Sequence record: OR896832.1
Length of the DNA stretch: 64,000 bases
Source: Escherichia phage GoldenSnicker
Reading direction: 5' to 3' (one strand)
How positions within the stretch are numbered: position 1 is the stretch's first letter; every line of letters starts with the position of its first letter. Positions 3,547 through 64,000 of this stretch are shown here, one piece after another. Position numbers and translations under genes: made by a program. The notes under the pieces are model-generated. The model saw nothing but the letters and a program-made list of their open reading frames with translations, did not search any database and was not told the DNA's origin.

Positions 3547-3549
3547 CTA

Positions 3550-3781: not shown

Positions 3782-3785
3782 AACT

Positions 3786-4136: not shown

Positions 4137-4287
4137 GCTTAACGAAAAGGTTTTCTTTTATGTTATTCATAAACGTCTGGATGGATTTAATGCGGTTTGA
4201 AGGTTTCCATTCTTCGTTGGCATTGCGTCGATACATCATAACATTACCAGTTCGCTTATATTCAGCAACCATTTTAAGACCACACAT
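4096..4287 (-). CDS. hypothetical small protein
   Basis: 63-aa ORF; overlaps 3786-4136 by about 40 nt. Confidence 0.35.
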   Translation of the reverse strand: MCGLKMVAEYKRTGNVMMYRRNANEEWKPSNRIKSIQTFMNNIKENLFVKRAGVGHWEVYEAV

Positions 4288-10990: not shown

Positions 10991-11011
10991 ATTACCCCCC
11001 AACGACAAAAG

Positions 11012-11035
11012 GCGGGGAACTAGCCCCGCTTATTA
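11012..11035 (-). terminator. rho-independent terminator
   Basis: hairpin gcgggg-aactag-ccccgc plus U-run on minus strand, downstream of rnlA. Confidence 0.55.
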
Positions 11036-12205: not shown

Positions 12206-12602
12206 AATTTGTGTTCCATTCTGGTTTAAATTTGGTGATCAAAACAGGTTCTTCGATATCGGCAGTGCTTATAATATCTTTACCCGTTGGATTCTCGATG
12301 TACAACTCAAAACACTGGCGGTAATAGAATGTTACTGTCTTACCTTCCTCTAGCGCCTTATGAATATTCTTACTCTTGCGAGTATCCGCTGTTGGTGTTT
12401 GTCTGTTAATGCTAGTCCGGTAATAATTGATCCGCTTTCTGAGATTAACAGTCTGACCAATGTATACCAGTTCATCATCAACCACAATAGCGTAAAGAAC
12501 ATTTAAACGGTTTTTCTGAGGCGGTAGAATCACATCACCATCTTTACACTCTAAACATGAATATTTAACGAATCCATAGTTTTCTATTAGCTCATTAATC
12601 AT
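12141..12602 (-). CDS. denA: GIY-YIG nuclease, endonuclease II-like
   Basis: VLYAI...VYIGQT...RKRINYYR GIY-YIG core; sits between rnlA and nrdB like T4 denA; could instead be a Seg-type homing enzyme. Confidence 0.55.
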   Translation of the reverse strand: MINELIENYGFVKYSCLECKDGDVILPPQKNRLNVLYAIVVDDELVYIGQTVNLRKRINYYRTSINRQTPTADTRKSKNIHKALEEGKTVTFYYRQCFELYIENPTGKDIISTADIEEPVLITKFKPEWNTNYVNKRKQQKSFSIVQKSDGTM

Positions 12603-33047: not shown

Positions 33048-35951
33048 ATGGCAGATTTAAGCAGAATCCAATTTAAACGTACTAGCACTAAAGGCCGTCG
33101 ACCTGATGCTGGTACGATGAATCCGGGGGAATTGGCAATCAACCTTGCGGATCAATATCTTCTTACTAAAAATGATTCCGGTGCTATTATCAATTTAAGT
33201 TGTCCTCCGGTTTATGACAGCGATGTTACAATGGCGGGTAAGGTTAAAGGAAATAATTATATTTTAAGTAAAACCGCTAATTATTTTGAAGACCAAACCG
33301 CGCGAGATCTTAATTATTTTGGTGCGTTTCGACCGAATAATGCTGATGGTTGGTCTAACTTGATTCTGAACATTCCTCATCCCAGCGGTAAAGCACACGG
33401 TCGCGGGTTTGAATTTGAATATGGTTCTAGTTCCTCTCAGGTTAAAACCTATGGCTTTGATAAGGATGGTAACAAGAGATTCAGCTTTCGCATGTATCAC
33501 GAAGGTGATAAACCTACTCCCTCAGAATTGAACGTCTATAGCAAACAAGAAATTGACCGTATGTTTGTTAAGAACGTTAAAATGTCCACTCCTTCCGGTG
33601 AAGCAACCCGTGGTTATTTTAAAATTGCATCCGCAATGATCCCGCAGAGTGGTCGGATGGCGTTTCTGCGAATCTATGGTGGGAACGGATTTAATGTTAA
33701 CTCCTACGATCAGGTGGATTTCCTTGAAATTGTGATTCGTAGTGGTAATAATAACCCTAAAGGCGTTAGTATTGCTGCATATCGTCGAAATTCTTTGAAC
33801 GTCCATGAAGTATTTGCAATTAATACTTCCGGTGATAACTATGACATTTATGTTAACTATGGTCGCTTCACCGATAACGTTATTGTAGAGTTTGGAAAAA
33901 CTGTTGATGTTGCATTGACTGTTCACGATGTTCCTGAATTTTCGGCGACTAAACCAGAAACCGGAACTAAATTTGATGCTCGTGTTATTACCATGTTCAA
34001 CACCGAAAACAAAGCAGGAACGTTGATGTTTGATAATAACTCACAAGCAACCTATGATATTGTGAGCCTTAGCAATGCACCTGATAATAGCCGAAATTAT
34101 CTGCGTAAATTCCGTAGCAAAGCGAATGAAACAATATGGCATGAAACTGTTCAAGGTGATGTGTATCGTTTGGCTACTGGTTCCACCGACCAAAAAGAAG
34201 TATTAAAAATTGTTGGTAGTGATGGTTTATTTGTCAATAGACTTCATCTGCAAGGCAATAACGCGATTCGTATGTGGCGTCCTACTGGTTGTAGTAACTA
34301 TTTTGAATATATGGATCAGCGAGACGGGGCTAATAAACGTCAAGGGTGGTTTGGTTTTGGTTCTACAGAAACCAACGATTTTCAATGGTATAGTGACGAA
34401 GGTAAAAACTTTGTTAAGCTAGAAGCAAGTGGTCAAGTATCTTTAAGCGCAGGTGCAACCAAAATTGTATACACTAATGGTCAATATGTAGCTGCCAATT
34501 CTGATGCATACCGTATGATCTTTGGTAATTATGGTGCATTCTGGCGTAATGACGGCACTAAAGTTTATCTTATGTCTACTGCCGAAAATGATAGATTTGG
34601 TGGCTGGAATGCCTATCGTCCATTCATTTATGATTTAACTTCCGGTAACGTTCAATTAGGCGGTGATGGTAACGAAGATGCATTAACGTTAGAAAGTGCT
34701 TCTCGTGCCGCTCGCTTTAGTAATGACGTTTACATTAAGAAAGGGCTTTTGACTTTCGACGCTGGACGATTAGGATCTCGTGATTTCTTTAAAATCAACC
34801 ATTGGGGTGATAGCAATAACGCCCGTGATAACATTTTGCAGTTTGAAGACAGTCAGGGCGCACATTTTACCACTGAACGTGCTATGGGTACTGGTAACAT
34901 AACAGCACGTTTTAAAGGCTTTGTTCGTGTAGAATCTGGCGAAATTGCATTTGATGCTAATCGGGGGTCGCAGTCTCAATTTACCTTACACACATGGGGT
35001 AACGAGCAACGCAAACAGGTTTTTGAATGTAAGGATGCTACAAGTTATCACTGGTATACTGAACGTACTCAGGGTGGCACTGGACCTATTCTGTTCTGTA
35101 TGGCTGGTAGTCTAAACGTTGGTAGCAATATCACAACAACTGGTGCTGATATTACGTTTAAACGCGCTGGCAATAAGCACATCTGGTTTAGAGATCCAGA
35201 CGGTTTAGAGTTGGGCTTGATGTATTGCGATGACGCTGGTGTTATTCGCTTCCGTGGTCAGAAACAAGCCCAGGCGTGGAAATTTGCAGATAAAATGATC
35301 CAGTTGGAATCTGGTACTGTATCTGGTGGCGGTAATGGCCTGATTCGTGGTGAAGTTGCTGGCGGTAGTTGGGCTAGCTGGCGTGACCGTGCTGCTGGCC
35401 TTATGGTTGGGTGTCCTCAATCAACCGATTCCGCTCATAACATCTGGAAAGCTACTCATTGGGGTAAATATCACATCGCAGCAATGGGTGTACACGTTCC
35501 TAGCGGTACTATCGGTAATGCTATAGCTCGCCTAAACGTTCATGACGCCAACTTTGAATTTAGCGCCTCCGGTGACATGTCGGCAGGGCGTAACGGTTCG
35601 TTTAACGATGTTTATATTCGTTCTGATACTCGCCTTAAAATCAATAAGGAAGAGTATAAGGAGAATGCCACCGATAAAGTTAATCGCTTGACGGTATACA
35701 CCTATGACAAGGTTAAATCTTTAACCGACCGTACTGTCATTGCTCATGAAGTTGGTATTATTGCTCAGGATCTTGAAAAAGAATTGCCGGAAGCCGTAAC
35801 AACTTCTAAGATCGGCGATCCTGATAAGCCAGAAGAGATCTTAACAATTTCTAACTCTGCTGTCAACGCTCTTTTAATTAAGGCGTTTCAGGAAATGAGC
35901 GAAGAACTTAAAGCCGTTAAAGCTGAACTAGCGGAACTTAAAAAGAATTAA
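33048..35951 (+). CDS. 37: long tail fibre distal subunit with C-terminal intramolecular chaperone domain
   Basis: N-terminus MADLSRIQFKRTSTKGRRPDAG...GELAINL matches T4 gp37; C-terminal ~110 aa begin with SDTRLK and end in a coiled-coil-like tail. Confidence 0.85.
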   Translation: MADLSRIQFKRTSTKGRRPDAGTMNPGELAINLADQYLLTKNDSGAIINLSCPPVYDSDVTMAGKVKGNNYILSKTANYFEDQTARDLNYFGAFRPNNADGWSNLILNIPHPSGKAHGRGFEFEYGSSSSQVKTYGFDKDGNKRFSFRMYHEGDKPTPSELNVYSKQEIDRMFVKNVKMSTPSGEATRGYFKIASAMIPQSGRMAFLRIYGGNGFNVNSYDQVDFLEIVIRSGNNNPKGVSIAAYRRNSLNVHEVFAINTSGDNYDIYVNYGRFTDNVIVEFGKTVDVALTVHDVPEFSATKPETGTKFDARVITMFNTENKAGTLMFDNNSQATYDIVSLSNAPDNSRNYLRKFRSKANETIWHETVQGDVYRLATGSTDQKEVLKIVGSDGLFVNRLHLQGNNAIRMWRPTGCSNYFEYMDQRDGANKRQGWFGFGSTETNDFQWYSDEGKNFVKLEASGQVSLSAGATKIVYTNGQYVAANSDAYRMIFGNYGAFWRNDGTKVYLMSTAENDRFGGWNAYRPFIYDLTSGNVQLGGDGNEDALTLESASRAARFSNDVYIKKGLLTFDAGRLGSRDFFKINHWGDSNNARDNILQFEDSQGAHFTTERAMGTGNITARFKGFVRVESGEIAFDANRGSQSQFTLHTWGNEQRKQVFECKDATSYHWYTERTQGGTGPILFCMAGSLNVGSNITTTGADITFKRAGNKHIWFRDPDGLELGLMYCDDAGVIRFRGQKQAQAWKFADKMIQLESGTVSGGGNGLIRGEVAGGSWASWRDRAAGLMVGCPQSTDSAHNIWKATHWGKYHIAAMGVHVPSGTIGNAIARLNVHDANFEFSASGDMSAGRNGSFNDVYIRSDTRLKINKEEYKENATDKVNRLTVYTYDKVKSLTDRTVIAHEVGIIAQDLEKELPEAVTTSKIGDPDKPEEILTISNSAVNALLIKAFQEMSEELKAVKAELAELKKN

Positions 35952-35992
35952 GGAAACTCCCAGGGAAGGGGAACTACTAAGGAGAAACGGCT

Positions 35993-36232
35993 ATGGTCTA
36001 TAATATCGTCATTGGTGCTTTGTCTAATTTCGGAATGAAATTATTGTCAAAGTTAATTAGTGAAAAGATGCTCACTAAAATTTTCTTCTATTGCGCTCGT
36101 CGTCTTGCGGCTTATACCAATACGCCAATTGATGATCGTTTTGTGGAAGAACTTTATAAGGAGTTTAATAAAGATCAGTCAGAAGATAGTAACGAGCAAG
36201 ATAAACCTAGTGATAGTCAACTACCTAAATAA
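35993..36232 (+). CDS. hypothetical small protein
   Basis: 79 aa, amphipathic N-terminus and acidic tail; occupies the slot where T4 has gene 38. Confidence 0.4.
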   Translation: MVYNIVIGALSNFGMKLLSKLISEKMLTKIFFYCARRLAAYTNTPIDDRFVEELYKEFNKDQSEDSNEQDKPSDSQLPK

Positions 36233-36265
36233 GAGTACACTGTCATAGTTATCTTAGGGCATTAT

Positions 36266-36922
36266 ATGCAAGTTTCTGAAAAAGGGAAAGACTTTGCTAT
36301 CTCAAATGTCCTGCGCGCTATTTTCACAACTAAAAGCACGGAGTTGCTCGTACTTCGTGTTTTTGCTGCCGTCGTGTTGTCCATATTGGCATTTGTCGTT
36401 TATAGTAAAAACGAGTTATTTGCGCTTTATAAAGAGACTCGTTATGAGACTTATGCTCACATTCTCCAGGTAGAGAAAGACCGCAATTTTGATAATGCAG
36501 CACAGGAGCAGTTACAGATAGTTCATGTGTCGGCTGATGCCGATTTTTCTGCTGTTTTTAGTTTTCGTCCGAAAAACCTAAACTATTTTGTTGATTTGGT
36601 GGCATATGAAGGAAAGCTACCACACACAATCGATGAAAAAAATTTAGGCGGATTCCCTATCAATAAAACGAGTGAAGAATATCGTAGGCATCTTTTAGGT
36701 AAATCATATTTTACCGATAAAGATTTCCAGTATATTCCATCAAGAGAAAAGAAATTAGAGAATATCGATATAGGTTTCATGTATTCTTGTCCTATATTCA
36801 ATCTCGATAATGTCTATTCTGGTAGTATCGCCATTTCATGGAAGAATAAACCGGATATTGACATTGAGAATTTAGATACTCTTTGCAATCAATCTGCCAG
36901 AATCCTCGGAAGGATTAGATAA
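36266..36922 (+). CDS. t: holin
   Basis: 218 aa, same length as T4 T; LQIVHVSADADFSAVFSFRPKNLNYFVDLVAYEGKLP and MYSCPIFNLDNVYSG match. Confidence 0.85.
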   Translation: MQVSEKGKDFAISNVLRAIFTTKSTELLVLRVFAAVVLSILAFVVYSKNELFALYKETRYETYAHILQVEKDRNFDNAAQEQLQIVHVSADADFSAVFSFRPKNLNYFVDLVAYEGKLPHTIDEKNLGGFPINKTSEEYRRHLLGKSYFTDKDFQYIPSREKKLENIDIGFMYSCPIFNLDNVYSGSIAISWKNKPDIDIENLDTLCNQSARILGRIR

Positions 36923-39218: not shown

Positions 39219-39977
39219 TTACTTGCAAACGTATTGATCTACATCAATTGCGCCACCGAATGTAGGGTGACGTTTTTCAAATCGAATAGTTCCGTCGTTT
39301 GGTTCGAAAACGGAGTATTCATATAGATCTTTCTTGCCAACATTCTTATAAAACCCGCCTTTAGTCATAACGGTTTCTTGTACGTTTGCTTTGTGTACGT
39401 TGTATTCATCAATGTATACAAAATCAACCATCTTCCCATTTTTAATGGTTACTTTAAGATCCCCTGGCTTGTTTCCATATTTTGCATACAGTGGAGCTTC
39501 TTTAATTTTGGTGGAAATTCCATCTTTCATACTCCACTCATAACGAACGGTGCATTGATAGGTAAAAGTTTCGACCTTCTGTTCTTCCACCATTTTTTCT
39601 TCCTGTTTCGGTTGTTCTTCGTCAACCTTCACAGAAGTCTCTGAATCGCTTTCTGACGCGGTTTCTTCTTTAGGTAATACATTCATCAAGTTTTGGATTT
39701 GAGCGTTGTATACAGCCTCCAGTGGCTGAATCTGCCCGATATTGATCATTGTATCACGAACAGTTTTATTCCAGTTGCGTTGCTCTTGTTTCAGAGACGG
39801 ATCAATCTTAACAGCCTTAACATATACTTCATGAAGTTTAGAATCCAGTGCGGAGATTGACTCATTAGCACAAATAAACTTCTCTGATTTTGTAGTGGCT
39901 TTAGCGCAATCAAAGGACGCAGCATTAGCACCGAAAGCAGTAGCGGAAAGAACGATAGCAGCGATAATGTTTTTCAT
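39219..39977 (-). CDS. secreted protein with DUF1311/LprI-like N-domain and Cys-bracketed C-domain (possible lysozyme inhibitor)
   Basis: signal peptide MKNIIAAIVLSATAFGANA; DCAKATTKSEKFIC...LD..LHEVY...QRNWNKTVRD pattern; acidic linker; C-domain with TKG motif and terminal Cys. Confidence 0.5.
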   Translation of the reverse strand: MKNIIAAIVLSATAFGANAASFDCAKATTKSEKFICANESISALDSKLHEVYVKAVKIDPSLKQEQRNWNKTVRDTMINIGQIQPLEAVYNAQIQNLMNVLPKEETASESDSETSVKVDEEQPKQEEKMVEEQKVETFTYQCTVRYEWSMKDGISTKIKEAPLYAKYGNKPGDLKVTIKNGKMVDFVYIDEYNVHKANVQETVMTKGGFYKNVGKKDLYEYSVFEPNDGTIRFEKRHPTFGGAIDVDQYVCK

Positions 39978-40049
39978 AATATATTCCTCAGTGTTTTTTG
40001 TCTTGATGGGAGTATCTTACTACTCCCTTAATCCGGTGTCAACTACTTT

Positions 40050-40205
40050 TTAAATTTCTTCTACAGTAAAGTCTTCAATGTTGTTGTGCTCGGAGAACGT
40101 TGCCAGACCAGCATTCCATGCATCATCCTCAGAGAAGAATACACCGTAACGTTCATATCCTTTAGCGCCTTCAAATTTAATCATTAATTTGTGAGTATGT
40201 TTCAT
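40050..40205 (-). CDS. hypothetical small protein (internal start)
   Basis: 51 aa from ATG after the promoter cassette. Confidence 0.35.
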   Translation of the reverse strand: MKHTHKLMIKFEGAKGYERYGVFFSEDDAWNAGLATFSEHNNIEDFTVEEI

Positions 40206-40236
40206 TTTGATTCTCCTTCGTTGTCTTGATGGGTTT

Positions 40237-40265
40237 AGTATAGGGGATCGCCGATCCCCTGTCAA
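40237..40265 (-). promoter_or_regulatory. sigma70-type early promoter with palindromic spacer
   Basis: TTGACA (40265..40260), spacer ggggatcggcgatcccc, TATACT (40242..40237). Confidence 0.55.
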
Positions 40266-40275
40266 CAACTATTTT

Positions 40276-40488
40276 TTAATTTTTACCCGCTCGTGCATTA
40301 ATACGCATTTTCTGCATAGCCATGATCTGGCTTACTGCTTCTTCTTTACGTTCTTGCGTGATAACGTGACCAGATTCCGCAAACTCTCCCGCAACTTCTT
40401 CTACGATCTCGCGAACTTGAGAACGTCCAAAGATGCGGTTTCCTTCGTAGCTCATAAATTCAGTCACTACTTGCTCAATAGATTTCAT
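40276..40488 (-). CDS. hypothetical small protein
   Basis: 70-aa ORF. Confidence 0.4.
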   Translation of the reverse strand: MKSIEQVVTEFMSYEGNRIFGRSQVREIVEEVAGEFAESGHVITQERKEEAVSQIMAMQKMRINARAGKN

Positions 40489-41697: not shown

Positions 41698-43055
41698 CCC
41701 TTCTTAAGTTCTTTAAGATCTTTCTTATATTCCTTCATTGCGGTCGTCTTTGTCCAATACTCATATTCACTATGATGTTTATCGGCATCTTTGACCAGTC
41801 GATCATACTCTTCTTGAGTAACGCTATACAATGGCATAGAAACTAGCTTATCGGCGTATGGACGCAGTTTTTCATGTCCATTGATGGATTGCATTACCTC
41901 GGCCTTTTTCTTTCCCTGTAGCTCGATTTCTCCCTTAATTACGCGATCGATAAATTCGGCTTTAGCCATTGCATAATTGTATGCTTCCAGCGTTTCCGCT
42001 TGCATCAATTCAATGCGTTTATCGACATACCCTAAGCGAATTTCGACGAATCGACGGATCAGATCGCTCGCTTTCTCGAATACTTCAACTAAACCACGTT
42101 CATTAACCACTACGATATTCTGGGCTACTAACTGCGTTAGTTTAAAATCCTTCATGATTTGCTCATGTCGAGCGGATTCATCTTCACTTTTGAAATAATC
42201 GCGTTTCAGTGTTACTTCAAATCTGAATCCATCCTTAGAGCAACGGTCATTATATGAGACAATCAGATCTTTTTCTTCCAGTGCATCCAGTACCGCTACA
42301 TATTCTTCACGGTCGAACTTATAAGGAACTTCTGATATTGTCAGTTTAGTCTTGCCGTTTAGTTCATATGTACCCTCAAGAATCACACCATCGCGATCAT
42401 CTCGCGGGATAACTTTACCCGTGAATTTCGGGAATTGAACACTAGGTTCTTTATCCAGTTTTCCGGCAAGTGCTAGCTCTGTGCATTCAATAAGGCTTTC
42501 CAGTGAATGCGGTAAAATGTCAGTTTTATACCCTGTAGCAATACCACTAATACCATTAGCCAATACCATTGGCACAACTGGCAAGTAGAACGCTGGCGGG
42601 ATGTGTTCCAGATCTTCGTGCTTGGGTGCGCAATTCATATCTTTATAGATTTTAAAGAAGTTTTCATGCACGCGAGCAAAGATATAACGTGCCGCACCTG
42701 CTTTCTGGACTAAACGCGATCCGAAGTTACCTTGACCGTCAAGCAGTGGAGTATTATTGCTCCATGTATTCGCCATGAGTGATCCGGCTTCTACGGCATT
42801 AGTTTCCCCGTGGTGATAACCCAACTCAGCAACACCAGATCCAATATCTGCCATCTTACGGAATTTCTTACGGTCGCCTTTACTCTTTTGTAAAGCACAT
42901 TCCATAACAAAGCGTTGCACTGGTTTAAGCCCATCCACTAATTGAGGAATCCCGCGTTCCTCGGCAGAATAGATCGCATATTCCTTAGCTTCATTATGTA
43001 CAATGCTTTCAAGGCTGCGGTAAGTAACTGATTTATTCATCTTCACCTCATACAC
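41694..43055 (-). CDS. 52: DNA topoisomerase II medium subunit (GyrA-like)
   Basis: 453 aa; GLKPVQRFVM, active-site region ARYIFAR; size and position as T4 gp52. Confidence 0.85.
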   Translation of the reverse strand: MYEVKMNKSVTYRSLESIVHNEAKEYAIYSAEERGIPQLVDGLKPVQRFVMECALQKSKGDRKKFRKMADIGSGVAELGYHHGETNAVEAGSLMANTWSNNTPLLDGQGNFGSRLVQKAGAARYIFARVHENFFKIYKDMNCAPKHEDLEHIPPAFYLPVVPMVLANGISGIATGYKTDILPHSLESLIECTELALAGKLDKEPSVQFPKFTGKVIPRDDRDGVILEGTYELNGKTKLTISEVPYKFDREEYVAVLDALEEKDLIVSYNDRCSKDGFRFEVTLKRDYFKSEDESARHEQIMKDFKLTQLVAQNIVVVNERGLVEVFEKASDLIRRFVEIRLGYVDKRIELMQAETLEAYNYAMAKAEFIDRVIKGEIELQGKKKAEVMQSINGHEKLRPYADKLVSMPLYSVTQEEYDRLVKDADKHHSEYEYWTKTTAMKEYKKDLKELKKG

Positions 43056-43410
43056 GCTTACAAATCACATTCTTTACTTTATCAGATTTATCAGCCCAAT
43101 CCAATAGCCATTTTAACGGAAGGATTGACACAATAAACGGGGCAGCAATCAAAGCAAACATGATACACCTGATAATCAGGAAAACGCAAGTGACAAAACT
43201 AGCGATAGTGATCCCGACAAAACAAAATACCATAGAAAACAGAGTAATGATATAGAAAGGCCAGAATACCCACTCCCGCATCTTAACGCCTTTGTATTCT
43301 CTGAATTGCTTAAAATCTACAAACAACTCTCGGATAGACGCGTACAGGACCGAAAAATCATCTTTCATTGCTCTGAATGAGCAATCTTCTATTTTAGAAT
43401 GACCTAGCAT
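43048..43410 (-). CDS. membrane protein
   Basis: 120 aa with two or three hydrophobic helices. Confidence 0.45.
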   Translation of the reverse strand: MLGHSKIEDCSFRAMKDDFSVLYASIRELFVDFKQFREYKGVKMREWVFWPFYIITLFSMVFCFVGITIASFVTCVFLIIRCIMFALIAAPFIVSILPLKWLLDWADKSDKVKNVICKRV

Positions 43411-43412
43411 TA

Positions 43413-43706
43413 TTAACCGCCTTTCATCATTGATACTGGAATTGTTTTCTGATTTGTGTATAACTGGCCTACTTCAATTTTTTCTTGAATCAACACGACG
43501 TTACAATATCCACTGTCTTTAAGTTTTCTGATAATGACTCGCTTTTGTTCGTCGGTGATAGGATTGACTGTTCTCACCAATTCACCGCAAATAATAGCAC
43601 CATCTTTACAATTGCCAGTAACTTTCATGCTACGACCGTGAACAACAACCACATCACCGTAAATCACATTTTCGTCGTCGTATTTGGTAATAACCGTGAC
43701 CGTCAT
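43413..43706 (-). CDS. hypothetical protein
   Basis: 97-aa ORF. Confidence 0.4.
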   Translation of the reverse strand: MTVTVITKYDDENVIYGDVVVVHGRSMKVTGNCKDGAIICGELVRTVNPITDEQKRVIIRKLKDSGYCNVVLIQEKIEVGQLYTNQKTIPVSMMKGG

Positions 43707-43726
43707 AATGTATTCCCTCTAAGAAA

Positions 43727-43748
43727 GGCCGCGCAAAGCGGCCTATGT
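43727..43748 (-). terminator. hairpin terminator
   Basis: ggccgc-tttgc-gcggcc followed by a U-rich stretch on minus strand. Confidence 0.45.
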
Positions 43749-43751
43749 TTA

Positions 43752-44078
43752 TTATTGTTCTACAGTATAACTGTTGTTTTCAAGCCATGCAATAACAATC
43801 TTTTCGCCAATTTCATCGAGCATTTCATCAGAGCCATATTCTTTGATGAAAATCGATGGATCGTTATTGCTTACTACGTGCTGGATCACAACATGTTCAG
43901 GAATTGCGTCTAGCAGTTCGCTATGATCATACTCATTAACGATATCTTCAACACTAACATTATTAACCAAATCAACATCATCCATAGTCACAGTAACGCG
44001 ACCGGACGGACGCAATGAATATTGGCTACTTTCAACTTCAACATGTGCACTTTCGCAAGTAACTTTCATATCAACCAT
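43752..44078 (-). CDS. hypothetical acidic protein
   Basis: 108-aa ORF. Confidence 0.4.
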   Translation of the reverse strand: MVDMKVTCESAHVEVESSQYSLRPSGRVTVTMDDVDLVNNVSVEDIVNEYDHSELLDAIPEHVVIQHVVSNNDPSIFIKEYGSDEMLDEIGEKIVIAWLENNSYTVEQ

Positions 44079-44092
44079 AATTAATTCCTCTG

Positions 44093-45094
44093 TTAGTAAT
44101 GGCTAAAACCTTCGGTTACATCTTCAACCACATAGTAACGATGACAGCGCATTTTGGCATTCGCATAATCTTTCGGGATACTTACAACGTGACGCGGATC
44201 AACTTTACATTTAATGATTCGGCCTCGTCCACCGCCATAGTGCGGAATATAGTGTTTCGCTGCAACGTGGAGGCCATTAGAGCAAGTGCGATCATCATCT
44301 GGGTCCACGTCTTTACGCTTCATTTTAACCGTGCGCCCTGGGCTATTATCAAACGTATGCGTAAAGAAATCTTTATAATCAACATCAACACGTTTCCATG
44401 CATAGAAGCAACCATCTTCCCCGATCTCAATGTCGTTGTGCTCTAAGAAGTCAAATAGACGATCTACGGCCTTACGGCTAGGGTTTTTCTTGCACTTCTC
44501 AAAGAAGTTCAGATAGTGCGTATATGGCTTATTCTCTTTAATCGACTCCACAACTCGACGAGTCAGATTATTATCAAGAACAATATTATGATAATACACA
44601 ATACCATTTTCGATACGGAAAGCGCCGTGATAATATACTTCAACCGCTTTCTTAATGTCAATCAGCGTAATTGCTTTAATAAAATCATTCTGCTTAACTG
44701 CTTCCAGTGCTTCATTAAAGTTAACATGTGATGGATCAGCAGTATAAACAATGTCACCACATGTAATAGTAATAAACTTAGTTGAGGCTATGGCTACGAT
44801 TTTTGAGGAAGTAGTCACGGGCTTTTTTGCGCGTTCACCGCCTTTTCCTTTACTGGTTTTACGGCGTGCTTTACGTTTTTCTAGTGCCTTGCGGCCTTCC
44901 GCTACTGCGTCTTTCTGAATCAGTAATACACGGGAAGCAGTGCGACGAGATACACCAAATGCTGCCGCAAGTGCTTCGCGGGTAGTAAACTTACCTTCAC
45001 CCCACTGTTTAGCCAGTTTGATTTGTTTCGCAGAATCCAGGCATTGAACGTTACGGTCAGAGACGGTGATTTTTGCTTTAGTCATAGTATTCAT
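44093..45094 (-). CDS. rIIB: rIIB protein
   Basis: 333 aa adjacent to rIIA; N-terminal HTH-like segment; assigned by size and synteny. Confidence 0.6.
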   Translation of the reverse strand: MNTMTKAKITVSDRNVQCLDSAKQIKLAKQWGEGKFTTREALAAAFGVSRRTASRVLLIQKDAVAEGRKALEKRKARRKTSKGKGGERAKKPVTTSSKIVAIASTKFITITCGDIVYTADPSHVNFNEALEAVKQNDFIKAITLIDIKKAVEVYYHGAFRIENGIVYYHNIVLDNNLTRRVVESIKENKPYTHYLNFFEKCKKNPSRKAVDRLFDFLEHNDIEIGEDGCFYAWKRVDVDYKDFFTHTFDNSPGRTVKMKRKDVDPDDDRTCSNGLHVAAKHYIPHYGGGRGRIIKCKVDPRHVVSIPKDYANAKMRCHRYYVVEDVTEGFSHY

Positions 45095-54778: not shown

Positions 54779-55303
54779 TTAGTAGCCGCGTTCTTGACGG
54801 GCGAAGTTTTCAGCATTTTTCAGATAGTACAGAATAAAGAGTTCTTGAGCGTCAATACCCAGCGGGATCATCTTTGACAGAATGAAGTGGATCGCGTCCA
54901 CAAATTCAAATTTCACTTCAAGCTGATCTTCTGGTGACAGTTCAGAGAATTTACGCGCTCGCGCTTCCCCGTGGTTCTTTTTCCACATTTTCCAGATTGC
55001 ACTTGCATCTTTACCATTGGACATTCCACCCAGCGATGTGTAAAGCTCTCGTGTTTCGTCTGCGATAGCGTCATCCATCCGTTGCATCCAATCCAGCATT
55101 TCACCGCAAGTCTCTAGCTTAGTTGGATTTGGGACCCAATCAAATTTTTCGGATAATGCAACCTGCAAACCAGTTTGCATTTCGAGCATCACCTGAAACG
55201 GATCTTTACCTTCTGCAATAGCGTGATGATATGCGGCGATAGCCGCGTTAATATCTTTTTCGTTAACCAGACCAGCACAAGAATTAAATTCTGACATATT
55301 CAC
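54779..55303 (-). CDS. 56: dCTP pyrophosphatase (dCTPase/dUTPase)
   Basis: 174 aa; position before gene 61 and size as T4 gp56. Confidence 0.7.
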   Translation of the reverse strand: MNMSEFNSCAGLVNEKDINAAIAAYHHAIAEGKDPFQVMLEMQTGLQVALSEKFDWVPNPTKLETCGEMLDWMQRMDDAIADETRELYTSLGGMSNGKDASAIWKMWKKNHGEARARKFSELSPEDQLEVKFEFVDAIHFILSKMIPLGIDAQELFILYYLKNAENFARQERGY

Positions 55304-55311
55304 CTCATTAA

Positions 55312-56340
55312 TTAAAATTTACAATATTTCATAAACCGCATTTTAGCCATCAGACCTTGTACGGTGTTCTCTTTGATGTATTCCATGATCTGGTCGCGTG
55401 TAGCGCCCTCGTCCTGAATCATGGCGTTAACGTCTTTAGAATGCCACGGGCAGCGATCCCACAAAACAATCTTTTCCCCTGCATTGATAAACTTTTCCAG
55501 TCGGTGCATTGTATCGGCAGACCGTGGTTCCGCATCAAGTACAAACACTCGCTGATCAGGGAAAGGAATTTCATCTAATCCCAAAGTACCGCCAGTAATT
55601 GCACACCCGTTATCAATAAACAATGAATCGATCGGACCTTCTAAGAAATACACTGGCCTACTCGGATCGGCGCGTTCAAGACCATAGACCTTACTCGCTA
55701 ACTCATGAGTTTTAATCGTCATATATTTGGTCTTTCCGTAATCCTTTCTCAATGCTCGCCCCTGAATGGATTCTATCTTGTTCTCGCGGTTAAAGATAGG
55801 AATCACTAAACGCGGTTCAGGTTGTGGATTCTTGAAAGTATCAGCCTTAATGTGATTTGCTACCTTTTGCCATTCTCTCGTGAAATACAGAAGATCCCAT
55901 TTATCGTGGGGAATGCAACGATCACTGACATACTTTATTATAGGATGATTAGCCGGAAGAGTATCTAATCTCTCGCAGAAAGGCAATGTTTGCACTTTCT
56001 TAATCTCCGGCTTTTCTACCTTTTTCAGTGGCTTGAACGTGGTGTTCTTGTGGTCGCCTTGTTCCTTCCGTCGTTCCATAAGCCATTCCCTGAATAGGTC
56101 CGGCTTATATTGTTTAAGAAATTCACCTAACGGCTGATTGTAGTTACAGTTGAAACAACCACAACGCAAACTATCCTTATAGGTATAGATACGGAATCGC
56201 GCTTGAGTATGATTTTTCTTTGAGTCACCGCAGATCGGACAACTACAGACCAGCGTAAATGAGCTAGTATGCAACCGTTTAAAATTTCGTTCGCCGTATA
56301 TGGCTTTTTCCGCTATTTCATAATCTGCGTAGTAAATCAT
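55312..56340 (-). CDS. 61: DNA primase
   Basis: 342 aa, same as T4 gp61; zinc-binding CPICGDS...CFNCN and TOPRIM-like region. Confidence 0.85.
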   Translation of the reverse strand: MIYYADYEIAEKAIYGERNFKRLHTSSFTLVCSCPICGDSKKNHTQARFRIYTYKDSLRCGCFNCNYNQPLGEFLKQYKPDLFREWLMERRKEQGDHKNTTFKPLKKVEKPEIKKVQTLPFCERLDTLPANHPIIKYVSDRCIPHDKWDLLYFTREWQKVANHIKADTFKNPQPEPRLVIPIFNRENKIESIQGRALRKDYGKTKYMTIKTHELASKVYGLERADPSRPVYFLEGPIDSLFIDNGCAITGGTLGLDEIPFPDQRVFVLDAEPRSADTMHRLEKFINAGEKIVLWDRCPWHSKDVNAMIQDEGATRDQIMEYIKENTVQGLMAKMRFMKYCKF

Positions 56341-56349
56341 AATAACCTC

Positions 56350-56553
56350 TTATAGCTCAAATTTCATGAAAGTTCCTACACTTTCATTTTCATTCTCTCC
56401 GTTTTCATCTAAGCCAAATTTATAGACACTACCATCTGGCGATGTGTAAGAGAATACACGAAAACGGCCTACCGGGTCAAGTTCTGTAAATTCATATTCT
56501 TTTCCGGCTTCAAAAAGTGCATATGTGCTTTTAAGACATTTCATCGTAATCAT
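56350..56553 (-). CDS. hypothetical small protein
   Basis: 67-aa ORF; start overlaps upstream stop (ATGA). Confidence 0.4.
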   Translation of the reverse strand: MITMKCLKSTYALFEAGKEYEFTELDPVGRFRVFSYTSPDGSVYKFGLDENGENENESVGTFMKFEL

Positions 56554-57967: not shown

Positions 57968-59380
57968 TTAGAAAGTCATGTTATTTGCTAGCTCGTCGAG
58001 TTTTTCTCGTTTCTCGGCTTGCTGTGCGCTTTGTGGTTTAACTTGTGCATTCTCCTGATCTGCGATCTGGTTTGGTACTTCATACCAACGCTGATTGCCT
58101 TTTTTCACACCAACGTTAAACCGTGAATAATAGTTCTTATCACCGTAACGAGACTTGATCTGCTTCATGAGTTGGACGCCCATTTTAGCCAGGTCTTCGG
58201 TTTCGATAACACCCAACATAAAGTCGGCAGTAGCCGGAAGACCTGCTGATTCAGCGGTATCACTCATGTTAAGGTCGGAAGCATCCCAACCCGCGCGGGT
58301 AGTCTGTGCCGCAGTCCAACCAACAACATCCCACTTAACAAAAAATCCTCGCAGTTCTTCCGCAATCGCCTTAACTAGTGTGTAACTATTTTCAGAGTAT
58401 ACACGCAAGCGAGACGATGCGCAAATCCCCAGATAGTCAACAATCACAACATCAGGTTTAAACTGTTTCTTGAGTCGCAATTCATTCATTAACGCCTCAA
58501 AGTGATTGGAGTTCGCGCCACCAGTCGGATACTGCTTGATCATCAATTTTCCAACCGGACGATCTCCGATCTTCTTATTCTTAACACGCTTCATACGTGC
58601 GGAATATTCCGCAAAAGAAACATTACCATTATCCAATTCATCTAATGTAATGTCAAGCAAGTTTGCGTCGATACGTTTGGCTACGACATGCTCTGCCATC
58701 TCCATTGAGATATACAATACATCATAACCACATTCCATATAATCCGCAGCAAGAGAACATAATCCAAGCGATTTACCAACATTTACACCAGCAAGCAACA
58801 CATTTAGCGTTTTTCTTTCCGCACCTCCTTTCGTGATTTTATTCAACATCGGCAGCTTAAACGGGATCTTATTCGCCTTAGTCTGATATAGCAAGAATCG
58901 TTTTTCAAAGTCATTAAACCAGTCATGACCTACATCAGAATCAAACGTAATGGATAGTGCTTCCTGCATGATCTCAGGAATAGCACCCTCACTCGGCAAT
59001 TTCTTATTCTGTTTCTCTTTTGGTAGTTGTGCGTTCGCCTGAATCTCTAGCGCCCGTGACATTGCATTATACATGGCACGGTCACGAATAAATTTTTCGG
59101 TTTCCTTCATTAACCAATCAAGGTCTTCCGGTGTATTCTCAAGCGAATCAAGAAGAGTTTTAGCCCCTTCATATGTTGTCTGATTGCCTCTCTCCTTGTC
59201 TAAAGCAATCTGTAATGCAGTTGGCGTAGGAATGTTGGAATATTCGTCTACGTGCTTTTTAATCAGCTTATAAATCAGTTTTTCTTCGTCTTCGGTGAAG
59301 TAGTCCGCTTTAAGGTGAGGCCATACATTCGTAAAGAATGCGCCATTGTAAATCAACTGTGAAAAGATAGTTTTAATCAT
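57968..59380 (-). CDS. 41: replicative DNA helicase (DnaB-like)
   Basis: 470 aa; Walker A GVNVGKS; position and size as T4 gp41. Confidence 0.85.
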   Translation of the reverse strand: MIKTIFSQLIYNGAFFTNVWPHLKADYFTEDEEKLIYKLIKKHVDEYSNIPTPTALQIALDKERGNQTTYEGAKTLLDSLENTPEDLDWLMKETEKFIRDRAMYNAMSRALEIQANAQLPKEKQNKKLPSEGAIPEIMQEALSITFDSDVGHDWFNDFEKRFLLYQTKANKIPFKLPMLNKITKGGAERKTLNVLLAGVNVGKSLGLCSLAADYMECGYDVLYISMEMAEHVVAKRIDANLLDITLDELDNGNVSFAEYSARMKRVKNKKIGDRPVGKLMIKQYPTGGANSNHFEALMNELRLKKQFKPDVVIVDYLGICASSRLRVYSENSYTLVKAIAEELRGFFVKWDVVGWTAAQTTRAGWDASDLNMSDTAESAGLPATADFMLGVIETEDLAKMGVQLMKQIKSRYGDKNYYSRFNVGVKKGNQRWYEVPNQIADQENAQVKPQSAQQAEKREKLDELANNMTF

Positions 59381-59694
59381 ACATAGCCCCCAACTACACG
59401 CATAACAAAGGTCTTGAGTTTATACCAGAAAGTTTCTTTTTTCAACTTTTCTTCTGCTTCTTTGATCTGCGCGGTTAACGCCTTAATGACGTGTGGATAT
59501 ACCACATCACGATCTGACGGCGTGGAGTAGTCGACCACAATACCTTTAGTGTCTGGATCGTATTCAACATTATGAATATAGACAATATGATGCTCTCCCT
59601 CTTCATCAACAATTATCAATTCCTGAATAACTGTCTTCATTGCTTCTTGAATCAAGCCGTGTGCTTCTTCTAAACTTGTTGGTTTCTTATCCAT
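59377..59694 (-). CDS. gp40-like protein (head vertex assembly chaperone)
   Basis: 105 aa between 41 and uvsX; hydrophobic C-terminus; assigned by synteny. Confidence 0.4.
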   Translation of the reverse strand: MDKKPTSLEEAHGLIQEAMKTVIQELIIVDEEGEHHIVYIHNVEYDPDTKGIVVDYSTPSDRDVVYPHVIKALTAQIKEAEEKLKKETFWYKLKTFVMRVVGGYV

Positions 59695-59718
59695 AATATA
59701 ATCCTCTCTAGATATGAA

Positions 59719-59745
59719 AAAGGGGCACGTAGCCCCTTTACTACC
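59719..59745 (-). terminator. rho-independent terminator
   Basis: hairpin ggggc-tacgt-gcccc followed by UUUUU on minus strand, after uvsX. Confidence 0.55.
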
Positions 59746-59749
59746 ATTG

Positions 59750-60820
59750 TTATGCTAACATATCTTCGATTTCTTTGTCAACTGCTTCGTCGCTGATCAC
59801 TTGCCCCAGCTTATAATGATCGTTGATTGCTTCGTTAAACTTATCGTTTGTCAGAAGCGGTTTCCAGAACTCAATGCTATTGGTTTCTTTAGCACGGAAC
59901 TTGCGTTCTTCGGTTTCCATCTCTCCGGTCTCAGTATTCAGGATTGAACGAGAATACCAGCCGTTTGACGGTTTCACTACCCAACCTAACTCTACAGCCA
60001 ACTCCAGCAAACCGGAATAAGGATCGATGCCACCGCTAAATGTTACGCTAATCGGGAACTTAGATTTTTCTTTAACGGTTCGTGATTTTTCCGCATTCAG
60101 GATAAAATCATAACCAGTAATTTCGGTTCCTTCTTTCTGCTGACGACGACCAATAATGAAAACTTCATTGGCTGAATACATCGCGCCCGTACCGCCGGAC
60201 ATAACGGTCTTACTAAACATTTCTTGTGTTTCGTAAGTGTGGTTAATAGCGATGCACGGGATATCATTCATAGTCAGATATGGCGTCACCATACGGAACA
60301 AGCCTTTAAGTGCTTTAGCTCGCGTCATATCCTGTGCAGATTTCTCATTAATCGCGTCTTCAACTTCTTTTTTACTTGCTAAGTTACCGATTGAGTCAAT
60401 AAAGATGATCACTTTATCTTCACGGGTAATTTGCTCAAGCTGGTTCATGATTTCAAATTTAAGTTCTTCGATGTTCTTGATTGGAACATGCACCACGCGA
60501 TCAGGGTCTACACCCATAGACTCCAGATATGCGGAAGTAATACCAAACTCAGAATCAAAGAACAAGCACGCCGCATCAGGATTCTGTTTCATGTATGCAC
60601 TAACGCAAGTTAATCCCATGTTTGATTTAAAGTGCTTAGACGGACCAGCAAAGAAAATCAGACCAGATTGAAAGCCTTTTTTAAGATCACCTGAAAACGC
60701 AATATTCAGCATCGGGATCTTAGTGCGAGTATTTGTTTTTTCGTTAAAGAAGCTGGATTTAGACAGTACCGCAGTAGTTTTCAGGGTAGAGTTCTTTTTC
60801 AGTTTTTCCAGTACAGACAT
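59750..60820 (-). CDS. uvsX: RecA-like recombinase UvsX
   Basis: 356 aa; Walker A GPSKHFKS; colinear with T4 UvsX. Confidence 0.85.
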   Translation of the reverse strand: MSVLEKLKKNSTLKTTAVLSKSSFFNEKTNTRTKIPMLNIAFSGDLKKGFQSGLIFFAGPSKHFKSNMGLTCVSAYMKQNPDAACLFFDSEFGITSAYLESMGVDPDRVVHVPIKNIEELKFEIMNQLEQITREDKVIIFIDSIGNLASKKEVEDAINEKSAQDMTRAKALKGLFRMVTPYLTMNDIPCIAINHTYETQEMFSKTVMSGGTGAMYSANEVFIIGRRQQKEGTEITGYDFILNAEKSRTVKEKSKFPISVTFSGGIDPYSGLLELAVELGWVVKPSNGWYSRSILNTETGEMETEERKFRAKETNSIEFWKPLLTNDKFNEAINDHYKLGQVISDEAVDKEIEDMLA

Positions 60821-60831
60821 TATTAATACCT

Positions 60832-61020
60832 CTATTCAGTTAATCCGTAATACTTTAATTGCTTCATTGTTATTCGATCTTTGTAGTGCTCTTGAATTAA
60901 CTTTTTCATCGCATCAACATCGATCGTCACAAATACTTCGTTGCTGTGATTTCCGTGAACTTTCTTGAAATGCTCTATGCCTTCCTCACGTTCACGTTTA
61001 ATCTTTTCAATGTCTCTCAT
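60832..61020 (-). CDS. hypothetical small protein
   Basis: 62 aa from internal ATG; the only ORF between uvsX and gene 43. Confidence 0.4.
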   Translation of the reverse strand: MRDIEKIKREREEGIEHFKKVHGNHSNEVFVTIDVDAMKKLIQEHYKDRITMKQLKYYGLTE

Positions 61021-61081
61021 CGTATATTTCTCACGTTGGCGGGTATCGTCACCCAACACCCGCCATTATACACACTTTATC

Positions 61082-63760
61082 TTAAATGTCAAACAGGTCA
61101 GTCAGAGAAGCAACTTTCTCATATTGCAGCTTTGCAGCCGTGGTAATGTTCTCCAGTGGTTTGACGAAAGTCTTATTAAACAACAAAGGCCAGTCTAACC
61201 ACTTTAACACCTCTGATTCAATTTCTGGTGGAATACGAGTACCGGACAACCAACCAAAACAGATTTCTCCAAACGGATTTCGATCTTTCAGCGGTACAAT
61301 CATAACCTTCTCGCCCTCACGAATCGGATCTAGTCCAAATTTTCGAGCATTACGATTATAACACAATACACTCTTAACCGCATACGGACAACCCTTAATC
61401 GGATACCCGTTTGAATCGCTGTATTTCTGTAGGTTGTTTGCAGATGATACCGCAGCAACATCAAGATAGTCAAGTTTTCTAAATTCTTGCTCAAAAATAC
61501 CGTAGTATTCCTGCAATGACTCTTCCCCTTCCTGCAACATACGGCGAATACATTCTTTCAGTGATTTCTGACATGCTTTAGGGGTGGAGCTACGTTGCGT
61601 TTCCAAGCCCATGATTTTTAGCTTAGGTTCAGCAAAGCGCGTTCCTTCCATATCCCAAACATTAAGAGCATAACGTTTTTTGCCAGTCCAGAATCCACCG
61701 ATACCCGCAGATTTCAACGGAGGACCAGCAATTGCCTCGCGGTCCATAAACATCAAGTGCTCATAGTTGTTCATGTACTCGCATAACTCGCGATATCCCT
61801 TGTCGATAATAGGTTCCATTCGATGTTTACCGAAATTATCAAGGAAGTCAACAAGTTTTTCGGTATCGTCGAAACGGTCTTCCCCGCCAACCTTATCAAC
61901 AACATTGTTAACCAGCACATAAACGGAGTCAGTATCACAATAACGAACATATGCAAAATCGGTTGTTCCGCAAAGCTCGTTTAAGTATTCGTTAATCTTA
62001 CGCTCAATCCACTGAATTGCAAGCTGACCAAACAAGGTGATCGCACTAGCGTTACGGAGATCATAAAAACGGAATTTAGGATTCCCCAACGCACCATAAA
62101 GGGAGTTGATCAAAACTTTACGAGAAAGCTGGTTTGTATTGCACAAGATCGACTCGTCTTTACATTCTTCCAGCAATTTCTCTAAGGCATCTTTACTTAA
62201 TTCAGAAAGCATCGATTTAAACGCTTCATCAAAGTCGTGACGCACTTCAACGCTATAGCTAATGGTCCCCCCATAAACATGATTTTCATCGTGTAGAATC
62301 GCTTTACATAGTTCAGCATTGCGATCACATGCCAACATCATGTTTTTGTACTGCTTACGCTGATCGAATACCTTTTTAATCTCAATCGGTACGATACCAT
62401 GAATATCTTTTCGATACATCCATCCGTTAGGCGAGCAAGAATACTCATCACTCGGACGTGGTGCAGTTTTATTGATATACTCGTGCATCGGTGCAGCATC
62501 AAAAGATCCGGCGATTGTTTCCGGCGAAATATTAACCTGTCGAATAATAGATGGATACAGACTTGTTAAGTCAAAGCTCATCATCCAACGGTAAGCATTA
62601 GGTACTGGCTCTTTTACAAATGCGCCCGGATAAGTCTGCTTAGGCTGTATCTTGTTCTCCGGTACTACTTTACCCTCAGCTTTCAGAGATCCGAAAATAA
62701 TAGCATCCCATACTTTCATCGGGTTATAAACATGGTTAAATTTAATCTTTGCATAGAAACATAGACTATACACAAGATCGATAAATCCACGCTTTTTATC
62801 AATCGCCAGCACACGATCAACGTCGCCGATGTTATAATCGATGTAAAGTTGATGGTTATCATCACGCAATTTCTTTAACGGACCATCATAATCAACCTTA
62901 CCGATTCCTGTCTCATATTCAGCAACATAATCTAATGCATATGTTGGTTGAGTAGTAAAGCTAAATTTCTTGTACAGGTCAATATAATCAAGGCTTTCGA
63001 TCCCCATGATCGTAAATGCTTCACGCTCGTTGCCAAAATCATCCTGTGAGATTCGGGATTTAATCTTACCGCACGGGCTTAGACGGTTAGCGGTTCTACT
63101 TCCGAACTTATTGCTGATACGTTTAATGATATATGGAATATCGAATGTTTCTGTGTTCCAGCCAGTGAAACCAACTGGTCGGTTTTCCTCAAAGAATCGG
63201 ATGTATTCTAACAGCAATTCATCTTCTGTGTCATAGACGTTATAAACAACGCGCTCTACAATATCAGGTCGAAGAATAGACTTGCTTGCTTCCCAGATTT
63301 CACCGTTTTTTCCTTTCAAATCAAATACAAAGAAACGATCATGTACGGAATCATAATGCGTAATTGCATCGATAGGATATTTCGCTTCTTCTGGTTTAGG
63401 AAATTCCGGTGCAGTGACCTCGATATCAACCCATGCTACACGGATTTTATTTCGGTCATATCGAATCTCGCCTTTATATGTATCGGACAGATAGGAGATG
63501 ATAAAATCATCCATCCCTAGTGCCTCCTGCCCCATTTCTCCCATCTTTTTACGCCATTTGTTGGCCTCGTTCATAGATGGGAATTTTTTAGCAATGCAAG
63601 GCTTGCCGTAGATATCTTTATAATTCGTAACCATACCAGGCGCGGCATGATGAAATAAAGTTGGCGTATATTCAACGTAACGCTCTTGTTCTTGTCCAGC
63701 ATCATCAATATAACGCTCGTAGATCTTATCACCCACTCGCTCACATGACAGAAAATACAT
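61082..63760 (-). CDS. 43: DNA polymerase (family B)
   Basis: near-colinear with T4/RB69 gp43 (YGKPC, DAITHYDS exo motif, SLYPSII, YCDTDS); start set at MYFLSCE after GAAGGAG SD. Confidence 0.9.
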   Translation of the reverse strand: MYFLSCERVGDKIYERYIDDAGQEQERYVEYTPTLFHHAAPGMVTNYKDIYGKPCIAKKFPSMNEANKWRKKMGEMGQEALGMDDFIISYLSDTYKGEIRYDRNKIRVAWVDIEVTAPEFPKPEEAKYPIDAITHYDSVHDRFFVFDLKGKNGEIWEASKSILRPDIVERVVYNVYDTEDELLLEYIRFFEENRPVGFTGWNTETFDIPYIIKRISNKFGSRTANRLSPCGKIKSRISQDDFGNEREAFTIMGIESLDYIDLYKKFSFTTQPTYALDYVAEYETGIGKVDYDGPLKKLRDDNHQLYIDYNIGDVDRVLAIDKKRGFIDLVYSLCFYAKIKFNHVYNPMKVWDAIIFGSLKAEGKVVPENKIQPKQTYPGAFVKEPVPNAYRWMMSFDLTSLYPSIIRQVNISPETIAGSFDAAPMHEYINKTAPRPSDEYSCSPNGWMYRKDIHGIVPIEIKKVFDQRKQYKNMMLACDRNAELCKAILHDENHVYGGTISYSVEVRHDFDEAFKSMLSELSKDALEKLLEECKDESILCNTNQLSRKVLINSLYGALGNPKFRFYDLRNASAITLFGQLAIQWIERKINEYLNELCGTTDFAYVRYCDTDSVYVLVNNVVDKVGGEDRFDDTEKLVDFLDNFGKHRMEPIIDKGYRELCEYMNNYEHLMFMDREAIAGPPLKSAGIGGFWTGKKRYALNVWDMEGTRFAEPKLKIMGLETQRSSTPKACQKSLKECIRRMLQEGEESLQEYYGIFEQEFRKLDYLDVAAVSSANNLQKYSDSNGYPIKGCPYAVKSVLCYNRNARKFGLDPIREGEKVMIVPLKDRNPFGEICFGWLSGTRIPPEIESEVLKWLDWPLLFNKTFVKPLENITTAAKLQYEKVASLTDLFDI

Positions 63761-63842
63761 AATATAAACTCCTTCACTTACGAAAGACACTCATTATAGG
63801 GGAATCGACTTAGTTTGTCAATACCCCTATCCCATCAGTATC

Positions 63843-64000
63843 TTAGCGTCCGATCTGATATTTCTCGATCAGAGTCCACTCTTCTTTCTGTTTGAAAGAC
63901 AGTACACGGAAATTATTAACTTCGGTAGTTTCAAAATCACTATCAATCAGGGTACACAGATTCCACTGCGCCAGAAGTTTTGCAATGTTATTACGGCGTA
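63843..64000 (-). CDS. regA: translational repressor RegA, C-terminal part (5' end outside window)
   Basis: hand translation ends NNFRVLSFKQKEEWTLIEKYQIGR, matching the T4 RegA C-terminus NNFRVISFKQKHEWKLVPKYTIGN. Confidence 0.75.
   Translation of the reverse strand, partial: RRNNIAKLLAQWNLCTLIDSDFETTEVNNFRVLSFKQKEEWTLIEKYQIGR

Follow-up and report, generated by a model that had tools for sequence, protein, structure and literature searches.

Alleles of gene 42 are distributed unevenly among the T4-related phages, being found in the T-even phages, JS98, RB69, CC31, the Acinetobacter phages, and some Aeromonas phages (Petrov 2010, Table 4; PMC2993671). The distribution of denB and alc is that of gene 42, and the RB49-type phages carry none of the three (PMC2993671). 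RB49 has been described as devoid of hydroxymethylase and beta-glucosyltransferase, and HpaII and NheI digest its DNA but not that of T4 (Yaung et al. 2014; PMC4041780). In the related phage TB34, cytosine was found to be canonical by HPLC/MS (2026; PMC13390438). That RB49-type phages have neither gene 42 nor glucosyltransferases is already known and has long been established. In T4, the interval between uvsX and gene 43 holds, by that phage's annotation, segA, beta-gt, 42, imm, and imm.1; a preliminary description of the DNA analyzed here had correctly named beta-gt, 42, and imm as its content in T4 but left out segA and imm.1.

The stretch considered here, 64,000 nucleotides of Escherichia phage GoldenSnicker (OR896832.1; hereafter the window), is part of a Krischvirus genome, that is, of an RB49-like or 'pseudo-T-even' coliphage. 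Over positions 59000-64000, megablast identified 59 phage records with 98.0-99.3% nucleotide identity, all of them Krischvirus and including RB49, phi1, JSE, GEC-3S, and kaaroe; the best matches were vB_Eco_SAP (99.3%) and vB_Eco_TB34 (99.2%), and 58 of 64 matching phage records spanned at least 80% of this segment. Over positions 20001-45000 the best matches reached 96-97% identity, indicating that the window represents a separate isolate within Krischvirus. ARAGORN found no tRNA genes in the 64-kb window; RB49 is likewise without them, as are phi1 and JSE (Petrov 2010, Table 2; PMC2993671).

At the uvsX-43 junction the window (Table 1) contains a single open reading frame of 62 codons, on which the listing of open reading frames and the sequence itself agree. 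It begins with ATG and would encode 75 amino acids if a GTG at 61059 were taken as the start. Transcription runs on the minus strand from gene 43 through the 62-aa ORF to uvsX, with spacers of 61 nt between gene 43 and the small ORF and 11 nt between the small ORF and uvsX, leaving no room for a further gene in the interval. With the 62-aa ORF as sole occupant, the preliminary observation that dCMP hydroxymethylase and glucosyltransferase are missing from this position is borne out. UvsX is 63% identical to its T4 counterpart and the gene 43 product is 55% identical to T4 gp43 over 903 aa. The core genes on either side are shared with T4 in the same orientation (41, 40, and uvsX on one side; 43, regA, 62, 44, and 45 on the other), the difference being that T4 carries five cargo genes between uvsX and 43, in addition to alc, denB, ndd, arn, and alpha-gt, that the window does not have. 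The absent cargo is a difference in gene content and not a statistical feature, so that chance is not at issue.

Table 1. Features of the window discussed in the text, with coordinates, strand, and supporting matches.
Feature	Position	Strand	Evidence or remarks
cd, dCMP deaminase	8609-9115	-	56% identity to T4 Cd; Pfam dCMP_cyt_deam_1 2.2e-23
Empty alc slot	11009-11035	.	27-nt junction, pseT.3 (10667-11008) to rnlA (11036-12205)
denA, endonuclease II homologue	12141-12602	-	49% identity to T4 DenA, E 2e-41; = RB49p224
td, thymidylate synthase, 406 aa, with ~125-aa insertion	18480-19700	-	Pfam Thymidylat_synt 1.4e-84 in two stretches
Gene 52-rIIB interval	43056-44092	.	small ORFs only, no Pfam match; without ac, stp, ndd, denB
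Gene 56 homologue (dCTPase/dUTPase family)	54779-55297	-	49% identity to T4 gp56, E 3e-50
uvsX, RecA-like recombinase, 356 aa	59750-60820	-	Pfam T4_UVSX_C 4.7e-35 and RecA; = RB49p024
62-aa early ORF, function unassigned	60832-61020	-	phrog_12120; = RB49p025
GC-rich hairpin GGCGGGT...ACCCGCC	61038-61064	-	directly after the -10 box
Perfect sigma-70 early promoter TTGACA-16-TATAAT	61065-61092	-	12/12 match to consensus
Gene 43, DNA polymerase, 892 aa	61082-63760	-	Pfam DNA_pol_B and DNA_pol_B_exo1; = RB49p026

The small gap between uvsX and gene 43 is real but ordinary for the lineage, the layout being identical in RB49, phi1, JSE, SAP, and TB34. In RB49 the gene order is RB49p024 (uvsX)-RB49p025-RB49p026 (gene 43), with an early promoter annotated in between that overlaps the end of gene 43, and RB49p025 is 98.4% identical to the 62-aa ORF of the window. 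The two genomes are alike in having no 42, glucosyltransferases, alc, or denB and in retaining 56, cd, denA, and td; they differ in that nucleotide identity is ~98% at uvsX-43 and 96% over the tail-fibre region, and also in homing-endonuclease-like content. SAP and TB34, Krischviruses of the Durham collection with 99.2-99.3% identity over 59000-64000, have the same junction as the window, yet carry two HNH homing-endonuclease genes flanking gene 61 (SAP 96685-97248 and 98302-98865) that are absent from both the window (at 55298-56350) and RB49. Between frd and gene 32, the window carries a 392-aa ORF (21003-22181, minus strand) with repeated CapR and treble-clef zinc-finger domains, which is probably homing-endonuclease-like; since RB49 has a 485-aa version and SAP only a 109-aa ORF at this position, the slot is a variable one.

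The preliminary description had also pointed to a dCTPase gene (56), cd, and a DenA-like nuclease in the window, and each is indeed a homologue of the T4 gene (Table 1); taken together with Td and Frd, these products are 37-56% identical to those of T4. The gene 56 homologue matches Pfam dUTPase_2 and phrog_173 (NTP pyrophosphohydrolase) and has no relative in the PDB. RB49 and SAP also have an annotated gene 1 (dNMP kinase), which lies beyond the part of the genome covered by the window. None of this is diagnostic of hmC, because nearly every T4-related phage carries 56, cd, and denA, irrespective of its DNA chemistry. Gene 56 occurs in every listed phage except the giant Aeromonas and Vibrio phages (Petrov 2010; PMC2993671), gp56 and gene 1 are not specific to hmC phages, and RB43 and RB49 retain homologues of DenA and dCTPase-dUTPase despite their canonical DNA (Nikulin and Zimin 2021; PMC8056088). 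Genes 56, cd, and denA belong to a nucleotide-metabolism set common to nearly all T4 relatives, whose products provide dUMP and dTMP and introduce nicks into host DNA. For a phage with cytosine DNA, a gp56 dCTPase of strong activity, together with DenA, would be awkward.

Genes linked to hmC were sought by tblastn (E up to 10) in the window, in the SAP genome (complete, 165,332 bp), and in the initial 38.7 kb of RB49, the queries being beta-gt, 42, imm, imm.1, alpha-gt, alc, denB, arn, and ndd as translated from the T4 record. In these three targets the sole match to T4 gp42 was td (E 0.01-0.03), the best of the remaining hmC-linked queries reached E 0.047 (arn), all being short matches at chance level, and the glucosyltransferase queries, which comprised T4 alpha-gt and beta-gt, gave no match better than E 0.8. 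Positive controls matched as expected (56, 49-51% identity; cd, 56%; denA, 49-50%; also frd, dam, 49, and nrdC). The curated annotation of RB49 (ranges 1-88,000 and 120,000-164,018) lists no 42, gt, alc, denB, arn, or ndd, and T4 gp42 compared by tblastn with all phage records found no Krischvirus among 60 of the 1504 matches. In a Pfam scan of ~40 unannotated ORFs of RB49, SAP, and the window, no glycosyltransferase, second protein of the thymidylate synthase family, TET/JBP, or C5-methyltransferase was detected; what the scan did reveal was a DEAD-like helicase, CapR/HNH-type endonucleases, CYTH, RlaP, and SLT matches, an Ig-like Hoc-type protein, a GmrSD_N domain, and an amino-methyltransferase.

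The only gene of the thymidylate synthase superfamily found was td. In alignment, its product has the catalytic Cys (in GVCHPF) and the Asn in LPFNVASY, as does T4 td, at a position where T4 gp42 has Asp (RND). A reading of td as a dCMP hydroxymethylase in disguise is ruled out by this Asn-type active site. The insertion in td covers approximately residues 118-245, between MYGMAWRRKP and IWEDQLQKVI, is absent from T4 td, and has no Pfam match; RB49 and SAP have the same long form as the window.

In the window, hmC-linked genes are missing from three of their syntenic slots. In addition to the uvsX-43 interval, these are the junction where T4 has the order pseT.3-alc-rnlA and the interval between gene 52 and rIIB, placed by tblastn at 41718-43019 and 44105-45052, respectively, where T4 has 52.1, ac, stp, ndd, and denB (Table 1). 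Taking into account relatives that are 96-99% identical, we infer that the hmC genes are missing from the whole genome of this isolate. In the neighboring segment 36923-41717, from holin t to gene 52, no homologue of motA or asiA was found at E 1e-3; T4 has both genes there. RB49 is not known to have a MotA-type mode of middle transcription.

A second line of evidence is provided by the restriction sites of the window. All 64 palindromic hexamers were counted and compared with the 2016 non-palindromic hexamer pairs: 26 of the palindromes are absent, as against 20 of the non-palindromic pairs (Fisher p 6e-30). Of the palindromic hexamers with four G/C, 17 of 24 do not occur although ~9.5 copies of each would be expected from composition, and A/T-only palindromes are not avoided. 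The missing sites include those of HindIII, BamHI, PstI, KpnI, NcoI, SphI, XhoI, SacI, SacII, PvuII, ScaI, and StuI, and that of EcoRI, which is absent from both the window and SAP; TCCGGA, GAATTC, AAGCTT, and GGATCC each have zero copies in the window. The non-palindromes that are missing are mostly sub-words of degenerate palindromic sites, and GGCC, CCWGG, and CCSGG are depleted 2- to 7-fold in the window. Sites by which RB49 was cut experimentally (DraI, HpaII, NheI, and XbaI) are present. Similar numbers of palindromic hexamers are absent from SAP (24 of 64) and from 132 kb of RB49 (23 of 64). By comparison, 85 kb of T4, with ~8.6 copies expected per four-G/C hexamer and hence similar statistical power, lacks only 4 of 64. 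Such a purge of Type II palindromes is the expected outcome when DNA has long evolved under Type II restriction. That it occurs in the window and not in the hmC-protected DNA of T4 argues independently for ordinary cytosine, and the window by itself suffices to show it. So thorough a purge is unusual and represents an anti-restriction strategy that contrasts with the base modification of the T-even phages. Our literature search, which covered the journals incompletely, found no paper describing restriction-site avoidance in RB49, and a description may exist.

The best explanation of these observations, which we hold with high confidence, is that the window comes from a Krischvirus genome without an hmC system, with ordinary cytosine in its DNA and with restriction sites purged. 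The lineage lacks the entire T-even hmC module genome-wide, including 42, the alpha- and beta-glucosyltransferases, and the accessory genes alc, denB, and arn, which make sense only for a phage without cytosine in its own DNA, and it replicates and packages ordinary-cytosine DNA. The uvsX-43 interval is a variable slot of T4-type genomes, occupied in T4 by segA, beta-gt, 42, imm, and imm.1 and in Krischviruses by one small early gene. Protection from restriction appears to be achieved by purging Type II sites rather than by base substitution, and probably also by Dam methylation, the gene for which lies outside the window. Unmodified cytosine in RB49 and TB34 is taken from the literature, and the present isolate is presumably unmodified as well. 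The preliminary description held that the modification state could not be inferred from the window, a position that proved too cautious given that the empty alc and ndd/denB slots and the extreme avoidance of Type II palindromes point to ordinary cytosine; the alternative it offered, that the DNA may be unmodified, was the right one. In practical terms, cutting, cloning, and targeting of Krischvirus DNA are possible as with any ordinary DNA, and Krischviruses can transduce; classical restriction and BREX are expected to be effective against them, and Type IV enzymes are not.

A reading that is compatible with ordinary cytosine, and not opposed to it, is that the DNA bears low-density methylation alone, with Dam-type N6-methyladenine, possibly N4- or N6-methylation by a second amino-methyltransferase, and no replacement of cytosine. 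We regard this as possible but somewhat doubtful. A Dam homologue 46% identical to T4 Dam is encoded in SAP (127198-127992) and in RB49 (RB49p063), and RB49p143 is a second methyltransferase of the MTS/Eco57I/N6_Mtase type; both genes, however, lie outside the window. HPLC/MS detected no modified nucleosides in TB34, although sparse methylation could have gone unreported, and the miscalls in the TB34 record, which are confined to CCSGG, could reflect a modified base at that motif. RB49p143 (plus strand, at 35754-36593 of the RB49 stretch examined; SAP 162388-163227) is a candidate second DNA methyltransferase situated in the late baseplate cluster between gp8 and gp9. Approximately 2 kb upstream of the position corresponding to the start of the window, SAP_053 (172 aa; minus strand, at 39772-40290 of the SAP stretch examined) shows a match (4.8e-20) to DUF262, the N-terminal domain of GmrSD Type IV restriction enzymes. 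Should SAP_053 be part of a nuclease directed at modified DNA, it would be in keeping with unmodified DNA in the phage itself.

The interpretation of ordinary cytosine throughout the genus is challenged by a recent report on SAP, the DNA of which was found to contain approximately one-third 5-hmdC and two-thirds alpha-gentiobiosyl-methyl-dC and to be sensitive to BrxU (2026; PMC13390438). The authors identified no hydroxymethylase or glycosyltransferase in SAP and call the modification unexplained; SAP and TB34 are 99.96% identical (PMC13390438). This report conflicts with everything seen in the sequence, and if it holds, modification in Krischvirus cannot be predicted from gene content. The modification could in principle be genuine, with cytosine fully replaced by hmC and gentiobiosyl-hmC through cryptic Krischvirus enzymes unrelated to gp42 or to known DNA glycosyltransferases, an idea that draws on HPLC/MS and BrxU data (PMC13390438) for SAP, the database genome closest to the window over 59000-64000 (99.3%), on retention by the genus of a dCTPase-family gene, denA, and dNMP kinase, and on the existence of ORFs of 200-275 aa without a Pfam match (SAP_034, SAP_055, RB49p049, and dc2). 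Were this so, no conclusion on the DNA chemistry of the present phage could be drawn from the genes missing between uvsX and 43, and a new pathway of hydroxymethylation and glycosylation would reside among unannotated early genes, possibly switchable between near-identical isolates.

Several observations make a cryptic pathway very improbable. TB34, with essentially the same genome, is unmodified, and the differences between SAP (OZ034687.1) and TB34 (OX001802.1), as taken from Table S5 of PMC13390438, resemble sequencing artefacts more than biology. The 14 SNPs are without exception C>T changes affecting the third C of CCCGG and touch 14 of the 32 CCSGG sites in SAP, and the roughly 50 indels are mostly single-base changes in homopolymers, many of which would frameshift essential genes (for example, 43, uvsX, 45, 39, nrdB, and 47); both uvsX and gene 43 are indeed split in the annotation of TB34. 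With these differences looking like artefacts, the two phages are probably not genetically different. Motif-specific miscalls at CCSGG could reflect either a modified base in TB34 DNA or an artefact of the chemistry. A genetic basis for modified SAP and unmodified TB34 was looked for among the differences in Table S5 and rejected, all of them having the appearance of artefacts. Furthermore, SAP has the modification profile of seven T6-like Tequatroviruses from the collection to which it belongs, and among the BrxU substrates its DNA was digested least (PMC13390438), both of which would fit a mixed or mislabelled lysate. Digestion of RB49 DNA by HpaII and NheI (PMC4041780) also stands against a cryptic pathway, as do the 24 palindromes of 64 absent from SAP itself, a sign of long exposure to restriction. 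On balance, we infer that a mixed or mislabelled SAP lysate is likelier than a new pathway.

The remaining possibility, raised in the preliminary description, that gene 42 lies elsewhere and the junction reflects a mere difference in gene order, with a 42 homologue, glucosyltransferases, and hmC DNA as in T4, could appeal to the window being 64 kb of a roughly 165-kb genome, to the presence of 56, cd, and denA, and to the annotation of gene 1 in RB49 and SAP, but it is scarcely credible given that T4 gp42, alpha-gt, and beta-gt find no homologue in the complete SAP genome (best match td, E 0.01) or in the curated annotation of RB49 (1-88,000 and 120,000-164,018), that every sequenced relative examined is without a thymidylate synthase-family paralogue or a glycosyltransferase, that Table 4 of Petrov 2010 leaves out the RB49-type phages and places them among those without 42, alc, and denB (PMC2993671), that the window has neither alc nor denB, genes that go together with gene 42, in the slots belonging to them, and that strong avoidance of restriction sites would be pointless for an hmC phage.

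The 62-aa protein that occupies the interval belongs to phrog_12120 (4e-42), has no Pfam match, and shares 96.8% identity or more with its full-length matches in Krischvirus. A search of 5.8 billion proteins returned near-identical proteins only, comparison with PDB sequences gave nothing meaningful, and the AlphaFold model is of low confidence (pLDDT 63, pTM 0.30). More distant relatives, 45-50% identical, are encoded by Salmonella phage Akira and by Klebsiella Jedunaviruses. In Akira, gp37 is a free-standing 60-aa gene (2947-3129 of the Akira stretch examined), and in Klebsiella phage IME346 (Jedunavirus; 2968-4257 of the stretch examined) the family forms the N-terminal ~55 aa of a DUF2800/PD-(D/E)XK protein; the motif IEHFKK-HGNHS-EV-V-D is common to the 62-aa ORF, Akira gp37, and the IME346 N-terminus. 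The uvsX neighborhood and this one fusion to a PD-(D/E)XK nuclease hint that the protein might act as a small accessory domain in DNA processing or recombination.

The -35 hexamer of the promoter preceding the 62-aa ORF overlaps the last codons of gene 43, and the same early promoter is annotated as hypothetical in RB49. A transcript from it would start near the GTG at 61059, which favors the ATG start and the 62-aa form over that of 75 aa, and the promoter probably also feeds uvsX, 40, and 41. The 56-nt stretch containing the adjoining hairpin has a minimum free energy of -22.7 kcal/mol (z -5.0 vs shuffles). PeSL (promoter-early stem-loop) cassettes of RB49 and phi1 were reportedly the subject of work by Arbiol et al. 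in 2010. Such a cassette pairs a sigma-70 promoter close to the consensus with a G(n)-loop-C(n) stem (Comeau et al. 2014; PMC4122927), and the arrangement in the window, at 61038-61092, resembles them in that a near-perfect promoter and a stem-loop of G-run and C-run stand beside a small ORF at a variable junction; it may be called a PeSL-like cassette. It is unlike a PeSL in that the hairpin begins 1 nt after the -10 box, so that the transcript would hold only part of it. Perfect TTGACA-N16-18-TATAAT sites number 10 in the window, vs 0.09 expected, and all lie on the minus (early-gene) strand, at 3752, 20987, 22214, 23309, 25672, 45522, 47480, 48466, 61065, and 63793. The first of these promoters (3752-3780) contains a GGGGATC/GATCCCC inverted repeat within its spacer.
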